Part shown: positions 27,790 to 32,731 of the stretch, piece after piece
How positions within the stretch are numbered: position 1 is the first letter of the stretch
How the letters are laid out: every line of letters starts with the position of its first letter
Source of the DNA: Candidatus Dadabacteria bacterium
Lineage (GTDB): Bacteria > Desulfobacterota_D > UBA1144 > Nemesobacterales > CSP1-2
Direction of reading: 5' to 3'
DNA: 64,000 bases
Assembly (NCBI GenBank): GCA_963805855.1
Contig: CAWDVW010000007.1
Span: forward strand, 576,001-640,000
Program-made: the position numbers and the translations under genes
The notes under the pieces: generated by a model
Told to the model about the DNA's origin: nothing
The model's input: the letters and a program-made list of their open reading frames with translations, nothing else
Databases searched by the model: none

Positions 27790-28917
27790 TCACTGGGTTT
27801 TATCGACGAACCCTTCCTCATCTCCGCCCGGGCCGTAGTGGCAGTTGTAGCACCAGCCGCTATCGATGGTGATGTCTGCGGGATCATCCTCTTTTGAGGT
27901 CAAAGTGTCGTGGCAGATCATGCATTGAGCAGGGTCTTCGCCCTCGGTATCACCATGATTGTCCTGCGTGGCCGAGCCAAGAATCCACGTCGATAAAGGA
28001 GGCATAATAGCAAAGGGGAAGGGATGGTTAGTATTAAGGGGTGTAAAAGAAGACACCGGATCCGCCGTGCCGAGCACGTTTATCTCTAGACTTTGGGGAT
28101 TGGTCTTCACGGAGATTAGGACGTAGGCGAACTCCTCTGGGGAGACGTCGGTGCCATCTGAGTACTTAACCACTGGATGTTCGTCTTGTCCTTTGGAGAA
28201 GGTTAGGATGCGGTATGTCGGATCTTCCAAGCTGCCGATGACCGTCGCCCGTAACGCTTCCCCCACAAACTGGTTAACATTTACTGTTGGGTCATCAATG
28301 CGTGTCGGCACAAGATCATCGCCCAGGTCATTCACCTCGATGAAGAAATCGCCCATCGTCACGCCGCTCAGATCAAACACTGCAGTTGTGCCGTCCATCG
28401 ATATGGTTCCCGTCGCGACGACCATGCTATCCGTATCAAGCAGTTCAGCCTTTGTGAAGGATGTCGCCTTGGTGTCTCCGTGGGTTATGCTGGGGTCCAG
28501 GGTGAGCGAAAGTGTGGCACCTGGGGGGGGTGTAGGTGTAGGGCCAGGGGTTGGTGTGGGAGCAGGCGTTGGTGTGGGAGCAGGCGTTGGTGTGGGAGCA
28601 GGCGTTGGTGTGGGTGTCGGCGCTGGTGTGGGAGTCGCAGTCGGCGTGGGTGTCGGACTGACTATCGGGATACACAACCCAAGATCTGCAGAACATTGCG
28701 CATTTTGGAAGAATTGTCCTCCCTGATCTGTACAGTTGTTTTGATCTATATTACCCTGACAAGTTTCAAGAAATTCACAACAATTCTTGCCCCCTTGATC
28801 TCTATTGTCGATGTCACAGCTATACAGTGCATAGAGAGTAAATATTAGTAATGAAAAAAGTAGTAAAAATGTGCCCGACAGTCTTATCCTCTTATTTATA
28901 TTTATTAGCCCACTCAT
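27790..28917 (-). CDS. Lipoprotein diheme cytochrome with Cys-rich N-domain and Pro/Thr linker
   Basis: Lipobox [14 protein letters not shown] linker (18-bp tandem repeats about 28559-28612); C-terminal CMICH and CYNCH. Confidence 0.85.
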
Positions 28918-28953
28918 GGTATTTCCTCCTTGAAAGTTAATTTGCCCGTTCCT

Positions 28954-28982
28954 ATTTTAGACCACGGTATGCATGGTGTCAA
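28954..28982 (-). promoter_or_regulatory. Sigma70 promoter TTGACA-N17-TAAAAT
   Basis: Consensus -35 and 17-bp spacer upstream of 28917. Confidence 0.7.
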
Positions 28983-29053
28983 GAAGCAATTTGAAAAGGC
29001 AATTTTCAGCCCCGATGAGAGACGGGAGAATGTTGACGAAGACCCATCCCCGC
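28973..29053. repeat. 81-bp perfect direct repeat, copy 1 (copy 2 at 32060-32140)
   Basis: ATGGTGTCAAGAAGCAATTTG...CCCATCCCCGC identical in both copies, each about 55 bp upstream of paralogous lipoprotein genes. Confidence 0.9.
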
Positions 29054-29111
29054 GCCAGACTATGGGCTATCCCACCAGCAAGACTGGTGGGCTTATATGT
29101 TATGCTTCCCA

Positions 29112-29260
29112 AAGACCAACTTGGAGAGAGGACCCTGGTGGGCTTGTGGCCTGACCACTTTGGGTAGTTATGTCCCTCTCCAAGCTAATCATGCTCTAAG
29201 TTCCATAGTGTTACGTTCCTGGAGAACCCATATAAGAATAACAGAGCATCGAGGTCATTT
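29112..29260 (+). ncRNA. IS110 bridge RNA (target-binding and donor-binding loops)
   Basis: TBL: stem CTTGGAGAG(A)GGAC/GTCCCTCTCCAAG with guides CTGGTGGGCT and TGGGTAG. DBL: stem ATGCTCT/AGAGCAT with guides CATAGTGTTAC and CATATAAG. All four match flanks or ends. Boundaries approximate. Confidence 0.85.
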
Positions 29261-29288
29261 AAAATCTAATTAATAAGGAGGCATAGAT

Positions 29289-30518
29289 ATGCTTTACTGT
29301 GGTATTGACTGGTCTTGGGAGCAATTAACTTTGTTCATCATAGATGACAAAGGTAATCCGATTAAAGATTTTGTAATCAACAATGATCTCGATGGCTTCA
29401 TGTATGCCCTTTCCACTATTCGTCACCTGTGTAAAGAGCACGAGATCATCTTCGCCATTGAGACCTCTAATCAAAGGGTTATAGACTTTTTAATCAGCTA
29501 CGACTACAAGGTCTATCTAATAAATTCCAACTCTATGGATAAGTTCAGAAAGAGGTATAAGACTTCAGGTGTAAAAAGCGATAGTTTCGACGCATTTGTT
29601 ATAGCAAATGTCTTGCGCACAGACATAAGTACTTTGAATGCAGTCACTGCAGACGATCAACTCACCCAAGAGCTCGGAATCGTTCTAAGGGATAGAGAAT
29701 CACTCGTTGAACTTAAGACGAAACTATCGAATCAGCTCAGAGATTCTCTGCGACAATATTTTCCACAGGCCCTCAATCTATTCAATGATATATCTTGTAT
29801 TGTGTCTCTGCAGTTCTTAGAGGCTTTTCCCACACACTGTGATGCTCAGAAGGCTACAAAGAAACAAATACAATCAGTTCTTAGAGAAAATGGCTATTAT
29901 TCTGAGAAGAAATTGCGAGAGATAACCCGAGTCCTAAGGAAAGAGCACTTTCCTCCAAGAGCCAACTTAATAAGGGCTGAGAAAGAATTTACACTTTTCC
30001 TTGTATCCATGATTAAACCACTAATACGGCAGATTAAGGCTTACGATGAGAAGATTGAGTCTCTTTTAGAAAAACACCCTGATACTAAGCTATTCTTAAG
30101 CCTACCGGGGGTAGGAAATAACTTGGCTGGTGGCATGATATCTACCCTGAGAGATGATCGGTCTAGATTTGACTCAGCTAAACAAATCCAATCCCTAGGA
30201 GGCACTGCCCCCATAACTAAATCAAGTGGTAATTATACGTATACTCAATTCAGATTCAGGTGCAACAAGACCTTAAGAAAAACCCTGCATCAATTTGCCT
30301 TCAGTAGCATTACGAAATCCCTTTGGGCTAAGAATTACTACAACAAAAAGCGTGGTGAGGGAAAAACAAGTTCACATGCTTTCCGGTGTCTTGCTAATGC
30401 ATGGGTTAAAGTTATATTTGCTGTCTGGAAAAACAAAACCGTTTATGATGAGAACCGTCATCTAGCATCTGTTTCGAGACATATGATGTCGCAAGATTAT
30501 GTGTTACCTTTGACATAG
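29289..30518 (+). CDS. IS110-family DEDD transposase/bridge recombinase
   Basis: YCGIDWS, AIET and KSDSFDA (DEDD RuvC-like); SLPGVG and KSSG (Tnp serine); AAGGAGG SD. Confidence 0.95.
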   Translation: MLYCGIDWSWEQLTLFIIDDKGNPIKDFVINNDLDGFMYALSTIRHLCKEHEIIFAIETSNQRVIDFLISYDYKVYLINSNSMDKFRKRYKTSGVKSDSFDAFVIANVLRTDISTLNAVTADDQLTQELGIVLRDRESLVELKTKLSNQLRDSLRQYFPQALNLFNDISCIVSLQFLEAFPTHCDAQKATKKQIQSVLRENGYYSEKKLREITRVLRKEHFPPRANLIRAEKEFTLFLVSMIKPLIRQIKAYDEKIESLLEKHPDTKLFLSLPGVGNNLAGGMISTLRDDRSRFDSAKQIQSLGGTAPITKSSGNYTYTQFRFRCNKTLRKTLHQFAFSSITKSLWAKNYYNKKRGEGKTSSHAFRCLANAWVKVIFAVWKNKTVYDENRHLASVSRHMMSQDYVLPLT

Positions 30519-30574
30519 TGTTACTACCCATTTATTTGTAATTATTTCTTGAATAAGAAAGATTTTGTCTGGAT

Positions 30575-30608
30575 AAAAAAAGGGAGGAGGGTTAACTACC
30601 CTCCTCCT
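30575..30608 (-). terminator. Intrinsic terminator
   Basis: GGAGGAGGGT/ACCCTCCTCC hairpin followed by T7 on the minus strand. Confidence 0.75.
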
Positions 30609-30642
30609 AATCTACTGACTTGAATGTCATTTCAATTGGGTT

Positions 30643-32007
30643 TTATTGAGTGGCTAGGAAGTTAGCAATCGCCTGGACTTCTGCAGGTGTGAGAGAACTG
30701 AGGAATCCCATCCCACCCTTATTCTCGTCAATAGCAGTTTGTATCTGGGACGCGGAATCCCCTTGGACATTTACGCCACTGCTGCCTCCAGAACCATCGG
30801 GACCGTGACACCCAGCGCAGTTAGCTGCATAAAGAGCAGCACCATCCTGAGGAATAGGAGTAGCTGTCGGCATTGGTGTGGGAGTGGCTGTTGGAGTAGG
30901 AGTCGGAGTGGCTGTTGGTGTAGCTGTCGGCGTTGGCGTGGGAGTGGCTGTCGGTGTGGGTGTTGGTGTAGCTGTCGGCGTTGGCGTAGGAGTAGCTGTC
31001 GGTGTAGGAGTTGGAATAGGCACTAGGCCGGATCTCAGTTCACAATCATCCGTATCCACCGAAGAACTGTCTCTTTGATCGACAGCCTGCACGCCGCCGT
31101 CAATTACACAAATTGCAAATGGATCCCCAGATGGAAGAAAGTCCACTATAGAGTTATCTTCAGACAAGACTCCATTATTATCTGCAGTGACGAATATATT
31201 GCCTCCCACCAGAGCCACTGCCGAGTCGTTGGAAGTGCGAATCCCGTTATTACTCGCATTAATCGTCAGTGTTGGTGTCGCAGTTGCGTTAAGATTAACA
31301 TTCGCAGAATCCTGAGCAAGAATTCCATCTTCACAATTGTCGAGTGTAAGGTCGGCTACCACGATGTCGACACTGGAATCTCCCGAAGCTCCAATACAAT
31401 TCTCGCCTTCCCCTTCTACCGTAAGATCGGCGTTCGGTTCATTAATTGAAAATATCCCGCTACCACTCGTTCGGATTACAGGAGAGGTGATGTCAAAGTT
31501 ATCAATTTGCAAAGTGGGCGGATCGACATCTGTAATAAAAGTCAAATCTAAATCGACAGTACTGCTCGAAGTAACATTTATCTGAATACTCGCGCTTTCA
31601 GTAGCCGGTGGAAGAAGTGAAACCGTAATGGTATATGCGCCTCCCGACGGAACGTCGAGAGAATAGTTACCCAAATCATCGGTCGTAGTCGAAGTAACCA
31701 GGGACCCGTTCTGGAAAACCTCGACGAGAACAGATTCGCCCACCTGGGCAATAGAATCTTTTGTAAGTGTAAGAAAATTCTTGATCCTTTCTAATATCGA
31801 AGGCTTTTCCGGCGCTGGCGCATTCATCGCACCAGGGCCAACCACATTTATGGTGCCGACTATCAAAGTCTGACCTTTACCCCCTTGATCTCTGTTGTTT
31901 ATATCACAGCTATATAGTGCAAATACAGCGAGCAATAATAATGAGAAAATGAGTACGGATGCGCCTGATACTCTTACCCTCCTATTTATACTCTTTAAAC
32001 CAATCAC
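30643..32007 (-). CDS. Lipoprotein with beta-rich stalk, Pro/Thr linker and C-terminal monoheme cytochrome c
   Basis: GTG start after GGAGG; lipobox LYSC; (PTPTAT)n linker; GAALYAANCAGCH...GGM class I heme domain. Confidence 0.85.
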   Translation of the reverse strand: MIGLKSINRRVRVSGASVLIFSLLLLAVFALYSCDINNRDQGGKGQTLIVGTINVVGPGAMNAPAPEKPSILERIKNFLTLTKDSIAQVGESVLVEVFQNGSLVTSTTTDDLGNYSLDVPSGGAYTITVSLLPPATESASIQINVTSSSTVDLDLTFITDVDPPTLQIDNFDITSPVIRTSGSGIFSINEPNADLTVEGEGENCIGASGDSSVDIVVADLTLDNCEDGILAQDSANVNLNATATPTLTINASNNGIRTSNDSAVALVGGNIFVTADNNGVLSEDNSIVDFLPSGDPFAICVIDGGVQAVDQRDSSSVDTDDCELRSGLVPIPTPTPTATPTPTPTATPTPTPTATPTPTPTATPTATPTPTPTATPTPMPTATPIPQDGAALYAANCAGCHGPDGSGGSSGVNVQGDSASQIQTAIDENKGGMGFLSSLTPAEVQAIANFLATQ

Positions 32008-32040
32008 GGTATTTCCTCCTTTATATCAGATAATCATTAT

Positions 32041-32069
32041 TTTATAAATGGCGCAATGTATGGTGTCAA
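32041..32069 (-). promoter_or_regulatory. Sigma70 promoter TTGACA-N17-TATAAA
   Basis: Same -35 supplied by the 81-bp repeat; 17-bp spacer. Confidence 0.6.
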
Positions 32070-32140
32070 GAAGCAATTTGAAAAGGCAATTTTCAGCCCC
32101 GATGAGAGACGGGAGAATGTTGACGAAGACCCATCCCCGC
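32060..32140. repeat. 81-bp perfect direct repeat, copy 2
   Basis: Identical to 28973-29053. Confidence 0.9.
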
Positions 32141-32296
32141 TCCACTGTTATCAATTTCTCCGGACTGAGTTCTTCAAATATAATTTTTTTGTAGTATGTC
32201 ATATTTTCGGACAAGCGACGAAGATTGAACTTCGATAATATCACATCTTTTCAGTAAGTTAGATTGTGGTACGAATATTGCGATACACCCTTACAA

Positions 32297-32731
32297 ATGA
32301 ATAGAAAAGGCGAGAGAATAAGAAATGAGATAATTGCGCTCTATGGAAACGGTGTAAGAAAACCCTCCAATGTCGCTAAAGAGCATCCACGACTTTATTC
32401 GAATGCGAGGAAGGTTTTCGGTTCGTGGAAAAAGGCATTAGAAGCCTGCAAAATAGACTACGAAGAAGCAAGAAATCATAAGAAATGGTCGAGGGAAAAG
32501 GTAGCTAACGAGATTAAAAGGTTATACCTAAGTGGTCATACCCTGAGGCCAAAGGATTTAAAGAAAGGCGGAGCAACAAGGCTGATTTCAGCAGCAAACT
32601 ATCATTTTGGTTCCTGGTCTAAGGCTGTTAAGCAGAGCGGTATATACTATTTATTTGAAAGAAACAACAAGAAGACGGATCAGATTGATATATGCTATAA
32701 TCAATTCAGGACAAAGCAGGGCGTTAGATAA
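32297..32731 (+). CDS. Small basic protein with two FGSW-x2-A repeats (homing-endonuclease-associated-repeat-like, putative DNA-binding)
   Basis: LYSNARKVFGSWKKAL and LISAANYHFGSWSKAV; no nuclease domain visible. Confidence 0.6.
   Translation: MNRKGERIRNEIIALYGNGVRKPSNVAKEHPRLYSNARKVFGSWKKALEACKIDYEEARNHKKWSREKVANEIKRLYLSGHTLRPKDLKKGGATRLISAANYHFGSWSKAVKQSGIYYLFERNNKKTDQIDICYNQFRTKQGVR

Follow-up and report, generated by a model that had tools for sequence, protein, structure and literature searches.

The window analysed here is a stretch of 64,000 nucleotides from the forward strand of a Candidatus Dadabacteria genome (assembly GCA_963805855.1, contig CAWDVW010000007.1, positions 576,001 to 640,000), and positions given below without a contig name are those of the window. 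At 29092-30523 it holds an insertion sequence of the IS110 group, 1432 bp long, in which a structured leader precedes a recombinase gene. An earlier note on this DNA, made from the letters alone, had described the locus as a bridge-recombinase system of the IS621 type, and every string and coordinate that it gave is present in the sequence. IS621 of Escherichia coli combines a bridge recombinase with a bridge RNA (Durrant et al. 2024, PMC11208160; Hiraizumi et al. 2024, PMC11208158; PDB 8WT6-8WT9). We consider it very likely that the element is an intact IS110-group insertion sequence working like IS621. The domains, catalytic residues, predicted fold, two-loop RNA, guide polarity, CT core and covariation of guides with flanks all agree with the type of system that the note had named.

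The element, its ends and its recombinase

The element lies beside a hairpin of a host repeat resembling repetitive extragenic palindromic (REP) sequences. This target hairpin (29071-29091, plus strand, as are all features below unless stated otherwise) has an 8-bp stem and a 5-nt loop, and its 3' arm is the left target. It is followed by the left copy of the CT core (29092-29093), the body of the insertion sequence (29094-30523; 1430 bp, or 1432 bp counting one CT), the right copy of the core (30524-30525) and the right target ACCCA (30526-30530), which continues the host repeat (CTACCC after the hairpin). The ends proposed earlier, 29092 and 30525, are confirmed independently of any guide match: a second copy in the genome has the same left junction, the word expected at an empty site occurs in the genome, and one contig from a public salt-marsh run (X2) joins 29091 to 30524 and skips 1432 bases, with two ambiguous letters at the joint. 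Occupied and empty sites thus differ by exactly 1432 bases and have two letters in common; there is no target duplication beyond the core, and the point of crossover is ambiguous within these 2 nt. No inverted repeats of 20 nt or more were found in 28800-32400, and terminal inverted repeats are absent, as for the IS110 family. The insertion is intergenic and disrupts no gene.

The recombinase gene (29289-30518) encodes 409 amino acids (aa) that form a RuvC-like DEDD domain, an enlarged coiled-coil region and a Tnp domain with Ser313-Gly314. A ribosome-binding site, AAGGAGG (29275-29281), precedes it and is conserved in the alignment of relatives' leaders; only 5 nt separate the stop codon from the right core. 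The Pfam families DEDD_Tnp_IS110 (PF01548) and Transposase_20 (PF02371) match residues 4-159 and 267-351, with E values of 3.3e-31 and 4.7e-17, respectively. A protein search at an E value of 1e-20 or lower gave 102 relatives, nearly all with both domains, the best being 93% identical and the next ones 70-56%. IS110-family matches at 23-28% identity, present in 21 of 101 genomes of the same order, were left out of the comparisons.

The claim of an intact recombinase holds: the open reading frame is whole, all of the catalytic residues are present and an IS621-like fold is predicted. Residues D7, E58, D98, D101, S313 and G314 are invariant among nine close relatives, and a wider alignment of 33 relatives keeps E58, D98 and D101 without exception and D7 in 90% or more. 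The corresponding residues of IS621 are D11, E60, D102, D105, S241 and G242 in Hiraizumi et al. (2024, PMC11208158); the DEDD residues of our recombinase align with D11/E60/D102/D105, and S313-G314 align with residues 243-244 of the IS621 chain (S241-G242 in the numbering of those authors). Detectable similarity in sequence to solved structures is confined to the Tnp domain (E values of 1e-08 for ISCro4 and 3e-07 for IS621). The AlphaFold model has a predicted local distance difference test score of 90.0, and a Foldseek search with it placed IS621 or ISCro4 chains at all of ranks 1-10, over the whole length, with E values of 1.7e-14 to 4.3e-13, template modelling (TM) scores of 0.75-0.78 on the target and 18-19% identity. 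The top match was the IS621 chain 8wt6_D (E value, 1.7e-14; TM score, 0.75 on the target). In the model, the extra length of the protein is a helical segment, residues 159-217, between two long helices (124-157 and 225-262).

A predicted bridge RNA and its guides

The predicted bridge RNA is about 146 nt long (29113-29258), its 5' end being placed from a putative -10 box and its 3' end from a closing helix. In the minimum free energy fold this helix pairs GACC (29114-29117) with GGTC (29254-29257). Within it lie a target-binding module (29120-29184; outer stem 29120-29133/29172-29184, inner hairpin 29146-29158) and a donor-binding module (29190-29251; outer stems 29190-29202/29240-29251, inner hairpin 29215-29227). 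The earlier note had read two stem/internal-loop/hairpin modules from the window by itself. Both appear in the single-sequence fold, in which part of loop 1 is also paired; the window sequence alone does not establish them, and it is the consensus fold of 15 sequences and its compensatory changes that bear them out.

That consensus comes from an alignment of 15 leaders, one from the window and the others from relatives of 37-95% protein identity, all of one common architecture; one relative with an insertion of roughly 90 nt (L115) and a near-duplicate (L035, of L034) were left out. RNAalifold gave 21 pairs in six helices, with compensatory changes in 16 of the 21. The consensus pairs were formed in 94.9% of alignment cells, vs 45.9-52.6% when the 3' partners were slid by one to three columns, and none of 500 shuffles reached the observed value. 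By helix, 86-98% of cells are paired in helices 1-4, which make up the target-binding module, and 87% and 100% in helices 5 and 6 of the donor-binding module. Of 100 loci of relatives, 92 are matched by a covariance model built from this alignment, and every match lies immediately ahead of the gene and in its orientation; in seven of the eight loci without a match, the contig extends for less than 100 nt ahead of the gene. In an alignment of 80 distinct rows fitted to the model, 94.6% of cells are paired and 19 of the 21 pairs show compensatory changes. A comparison among leaders points to the closing helix as well: a leader's own 5' and 3' segments pair at -8.46 kcal/mol, vs -6.36 for swapped segments, and 12 of 5,000 permutations were as good. 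No Rfam 15 family covers the RNA region, the best overlapping one being caiA at 18.5 bits against a cut-off of 55.5 bits.

Four guides can be read from the two loops. In the target loop, the left guide (29135-29144) is sense to 8 nt of left flank plus CT and equals the 10-mer at 29084-29093, and the right guide, TGGGTAG (29161-29167), is the reverse complement of 30524-30530, which comprises CT and the first 5 nt of the right flank. In the donor loop, the left guide, an 11-mer (29204-29214), equals 30514-30524, in which the final 10 nt of the right end are followed by the C of the core; the right guide, CATATAAG (29229-29236), is the reverse complement of 29092-29099, which comprises CT and the next 6 nt of the left end. 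The donor guide matches of 11 and 8 nt on which the earlier note had remarked are thus read directly. When anchored on the alignment, the window's guides match at 9/9 (left target), 7/7 (right target), 10/10 (left donor) and 8/8 (right donor) positions. Their polarity is that of IS621: the 5' sides of the loops are sense to the top strand and the 3' sides antisense, core included. In 200,000 shuffles of 29107-29288 the four guide words were seen 13, 1,775, 9 and 932 times, giving a joint chance of about 1e-13, given independence.

The guides also change with their sites across relatives. For this comparison the donor guides served to locate the ends, and the flanks obtained in this way were used to score the target guides. 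Among the 15 aligned loci the left target guide matched its own flank at a mean of 5.92 of 8 positions (n = 12) and the flanks of other loci at 2.68; the corresponding values for the right target guide were 4.14 of 5 (n = 14) and 1.43, and in neither case did any of 20,000 permutations reach the observed value. A larger set of 79 loci, each with an RNA match and an intact gene, had the right end located in 74 and the left end in 73. Here the right target guide scored 4.17 of 5 on its own flank (41 distinct pairs, 22 of them perfect, with 30 different 5-mers) and 1.52 on others, and the left target guide, for which four registers were permitted for own and other pairs alike, scored 6.20 of 8 (61 distinct pairs) and 3.76; for either guide the own-flank sum was reached by none of 10,000 permutations. 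The core is CT in 69 of the 74 right junctions and in 69 of the 73 left ones. As the relatives are not independent, the permutation tests overstate significance; the diversity of targets among them nevertheless keeps the guide-flank signal clear. In the five closest relatives the guides change along with flanks and ends, and one of these (L040) has a wholly different left target with a matching guide. Folding the leader and testing for covariation across homologs, as the earlier note had proposed, yields both conserved stems and guides that covary with flanks.

Some loci were harder to score. The left end was taken as the site nearest the RNA, which is probably wrong for L117, and four loci (L118, L119, L042 and L045) gave no left flank in the first search for left ends, which is explained by contig starts or longer leaders. 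In the distant clade at 33% identity the match between leader and 3' end contains mismatches. A cruder measure, the longest common substring between leader and 3' end, separated own from other pairs weakly (mean, 7.02 vs 6.53) and was replaced by the alignment-anchored guides.

Hiraizumi et al. (2024, PMC11208158) describe handshake bases, and both loops have bases at the corresponding positions. In the target loop (29168-29169) the U can pair with the A at 30523, the last donor base before the core, and this base is Watson-Crick complementary to donor position 7 in all 14 loci, the window included. In the donor loop (29237-29238) the A cannot pair with target position 7, the G at 29091.

A junction promoter had also been proposed, and its hexamers, spacing and TG are found as described. 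A putative -35 box, TTGACA (30510-30515), lies in the last codons of the gene and overlaps the left-donor sequence, and a putative extended -10 box (29098-29106) consists of TG (29098-29099), one base and TATGCT (29101-29106); both are sequence matches. They stand 17 nt apart only when the ends are joined at one CT. No promoter-like site was called at the left end in the integrated state, which fits a junction-dependent promoter without being evidence for one. No separate terminator was called between the RNA and the gene.

A few relatives have departures from the common RNA. In L115 (474-706) the target module is separated from the donor module by the insertion of about 90 nt, and the RNA model matches in two pieces. 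In L122, a 37% relative, the model matches twice more past the stop codon (2397-2705), as a full two-module copy and a lone target module, both preceding a right-end-like sequence; these extra 3' modules recall the Ssr9 copies of ISPpu9 of Pseudomonas putida (PMC12288879). In L120 (2208-2792) the 120 nt after the recombinase stop contain no right end, and a further open reading frame starts 5 nt past that stop. This frame may be a passenger gene of an enlarged element (compare preprint 10.64898/2026.08.14.744561).

Host repeat, copies and rival explanations

The genome assembly that we searched comprises nine contigs and 3.11 Mb. It holds 16 copies of the 21-nt hairpin at up to three mismatches, of which 2 are occupied by the element; 9 of the other 14 are followed by CTACCC. 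The 15-mer of the empty site occurs exactly twice, vs 0.0058 expected, and 9 and 17 times at up to one and two mismatches, respectively. The repeat is composite, with two sister hairpins that have the same loop, each followed by CTACCC on its own strand (e.g., C2:690494 and C5:428330). The 70% relatives L034 and L035 lie beside the sister type of hairpin and have a left target guide that is altered accordingly; together with the window element they are a case of natural retargeting within one repeat family. A 95% relative, L033, occupies a different site of the same repeat type. In two genomes of the same genus (G001 and G002) a search for the orthologous empty site gave fragments of 66-86% identity, mostly of a repeat-rich coding part, and no usable intergenic orthologue.

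The second copy lies on contig C5 (922159-923118, minus strand; locus L002, 1501-2460) and is 100% identical to window 29084-30044, i.e., over 961 nt. It has the same hairpin and left junction and a different upstream sequence. It breaks off at window 30044, with the bridge RNA region intact, and as this is at about codon 251 it lacks the Tnp domain. In public metagenomes 29024-29991 is covered at roughly double the depth of the remainder of the element (8.28 vs 3.7-4.4 in run X1; 10.5 vs 4.08 in X2), which fits a real truncated second copy. The sequence after the break starts with TTACCCG, similar to the CTACCCG that forms the right half of the host repeat. It is conceivable that the 3' part was lost by recombination with a nearby half-site (compare the preprint on half-matches). 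Five further IS110-family matches are present in the genome (C2:79951, C2:116675, C7:152424, C7:641182 and C5:482038); three of these, with frames of 363 aa, score identically, and one of the three lies about 1.2 kb past the right end of the window.

The flanking genes, at 27790-28917 and 30643-32007 (minus strand), encode tandem paralogous secreted proteins with Pro-Thr-rich linkers and CxxCH motifs. The 454-aa gene has its terminator to the right of the element (30583-30607, minus strand); an Rfam 15 match to sraA at 30522-30616 (30.5 bits against a cut-off of 56) was rejected as being this terminator. To the left is a promoter-bearing block of 89 nt (28969-29057) upstream of the 375-aa paralogue of that gene. 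This block is 98% identical to 32056-32144 and contains a near-consensus minus-strand promoter.

Several observations weigh against our reading of the locus. The left donor guide covers only the C of the CT core, and the donor-loop handshake, A against G, is unpaired in the window and paired in 10 of 13 loci; the other unpaired cases are L033 and L117, the latter with its probably mislocated left end. At the fixed junction offset, which was the one examined, the -35 hexamer is present in 14 of 71 relatives and is not conserved in the distant ones. Folded by itself the RNA is not unusually stable (z = -0.91; 33 of 200 shuffles at least as stable), and hence its structure rests on the comparative evidence of the 15-sequence consensus. 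The genome holds one full copy, the second being truncated. The public salt-marsh runs were examined as assembled contigs, in which rare forms are invisible. The X2 contig of the empty site has a depth of 2.6 and 21 letters on its shorter side; it is weak support, both because that side is so short and because the target is a repeat. No circle junction (back-joint) was found in the contigs of the public runs. However, Hiraizumi et al. (2026) found the IS621 bridge RNA to be weakly expressed from genomic loci and excision to be less efficient than insertion, and the missing circle is therefore uninformative. In the sole RNA run, the metatranscriptome X20, no contig covers 29113-29258; its two contigs of 151 nt (29552-29702 and 29792-29936, plus strand) lie inside the recombinase gene only, may be DNA carry-over and have no bearing on the bridge RNA.

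Some of these observations would be expected if the locus held the same kind of element in a copy that is no longer mobile, its RNA and protein being intact through recency rather than function. One full and one truncated copy in 3.1 Mb, the unpaired donor-loop handshake, the lack of a circle junction and the 14 similar hairpins that stand unoccupied, two of them with a perfect 15-nt site, can all be put forward for such a copy. We nevertheless think it unlikely. The two copies are identical over all 961 nt that they share, the reading frame and every catalytic residue are kept, the four guides match perfectly, a contig without the element at this site exists, and the 95% relative L033 sits at a different site of the same repeat type; an absent circle is, moreover, what the weak RNA expression and inefficient excision of IS621 (Hiraizumi et al. 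2026) lead one to expect.

The other explanations concern the nature of the leader and the extent of the mobile unit. It is extremely improbable that the 5' region is a mere structured leader regulating translation of the recombinase or stability of its message, with guide matches that are coincidental. Its adjacency to the ribosome-binding site, the lack of a called terminator ahead of the gene and the unremarkable fold energy would suit this explanation; the joint chance of the four matches does not, nor do loops that change with the flanks across relatives using at least 30 different right-target 5-mers or stems that stay paired through compensatory changes. A mobile unit larger than 29092-30523 or otherwise bounded, which might include the hairpin or the 89-nt block at 28969-29057, is very improbable. 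The hairpin does accompany both copies and the block does recur at 32056-32144, but the copies differ upstream of the hairpin, 14 more hairpins lack the element, the block is the common upstream region of two tandem paralogous genes and one contig skips exactly 1432 bases.

If the element is, as we think, an intact insertion sequence working like IS621, excision would circularise the element, joining its right end to its left end through a single CT, and this junction would set the -35 box of the right end and the extended -10 box of the left end 17 nt apart. Transcription from the junction would then give first the bridge RNA (about 146 nt) and after it the recombinase message. Of the two stem-loops of this RNA, each with an internal loop, the first would pair with the two strands of the host target (the CT core with 8 nt of flank on its left and 5 nt on its right), i.e., with the 3' arm and tail of the REP-like hairpin repeat, and the second with the joined ends (the core with 10 nt of the right end before it and 6 nt of the left end after it). 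A recombinase tetramer with DEDD and serine active sites would exchange strands at the CT core and so insert the circle. What the analysis shows is the anatomy of the element, its conservation and covariation, its ends and the repeat that it targets; transcription, the circle, catalysis and the present activity that the earlier note had thought probable are inferred.

Relation to known systems

The recombinase has the domains of IS621, a RuvC-like DEDD domain, a coiled coil and a Tnp domain with a catalytic Ser-Gly, and the RNA likewise lies in the left end upstream of the gene, with the target loop first and the donor loop second. Like IS621, the window element also lies beside a repeated extragenic hairpin, IS621 being said to target REP sequences. 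Further points of agreement are the CT core, loops in which the 5' side is complementary to the bottom strand and the 3' side to the top strand, and the position of the target-loop handshake. The layout of the putative junction promoter fits the description of IS621 (PMC11208160).

The differences from IS621 are modest. The recombinase has 409 aa rather than 326, with 18-19% identity in the fold alignment, and its predicted coiled coil has the extra helical segment 159-217. The RNA is about 146 nt long as against 177 nt, and a closing helix joins both of its ends. IS621 has a 5' stem-loop ahead of the target-binding stem-loop (PMC11208160); the window RNA does not, and the distance from the end of the -10 box (29106) to the beginning of the first stem (29120) leaves no space for one. 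The inferred start (about 29113) is some 7 nt from that stem, and these nucleotides lie partly in the closing helix. The left donor guide has 10 nt plus one core base, vs a typical 8-9 nt (PMC11208160), and the donor-loop handshake base is unpaired. The bridge recombinase ISCro4/IS622 (Perry et al. 2025, preprint 10.1101/2025.05.14.653916; PDB 9T56) has the same fold (E value, 7.2e-14; TM score, 0.76 on the target) and is the best sequence match in PDB (E value, 1e-08); the window recombinase differs from it (341 aa in the PDB chain) as it does from IS621. ISPpu10 of Pseudomonas putida is an IS110 element whose insertions are all at copies of one intergenic repeat (preprint 10.64898/2026.03.19.712850). 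As described there, it has a GC-rich stem-loop on the 5' side of its target, to which we liken the hairpin at 29071-29091 by description and not by sequence.

Among the relatives of the window element, proteins of about 405-415 aa with the additional coiled-coil helices, an RNA without a 5' stem-loop that is closed by a terminal helix, and a 10-nt left donor guide could together define a clade that is a distinct structural variant, with retargeting between sister hairpins and a hairpin that may gate insertion as in ISPpu10. We put this forward tentatively, as a possibility that we would not favour at present. If it is true, and if the differences alter specificity or the handling of the RNA, tests of the clade as a scaffold for editing would be worthwhile. 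In elements of the IS1111 group, the guide RNA, called seekRNA, is reportedly located downstream of the gene, whereas that of the window element is upstream. These elements are otherwise said to have a recombinase of the same family and to follow the same principle of an RNA guide. The term seekRNA is used in PMC13604230.

The earlier note had seen in this element a candidate new programmable recombinase orthologue. It is a member of the IS110 bridge systems, but is new in a weak sense only, as thousands of such orthologues exist: Durrant et al. (PMC11208160) reconstructed thousands of IS110 insertion sites and circles and analysed thousands of orthologues. The element is a clean but ordinary example of the known kind of bridge RNA and not a new system, and it opens no new question, the system having been described in 2024 on that scale.

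In summary, the locus provides a well-documented natural example of the RNA-guided recombinases, a class with present use in genome engineering. The sequence by itself reveals the target, the donor, the core, the handshake positions and the host repeat, and a small clade displays natural changes of the guides. For the host, an uncultured sediment bacterium, the element accounts for one intergenic insertion and ties it to a REP-like repeat family.

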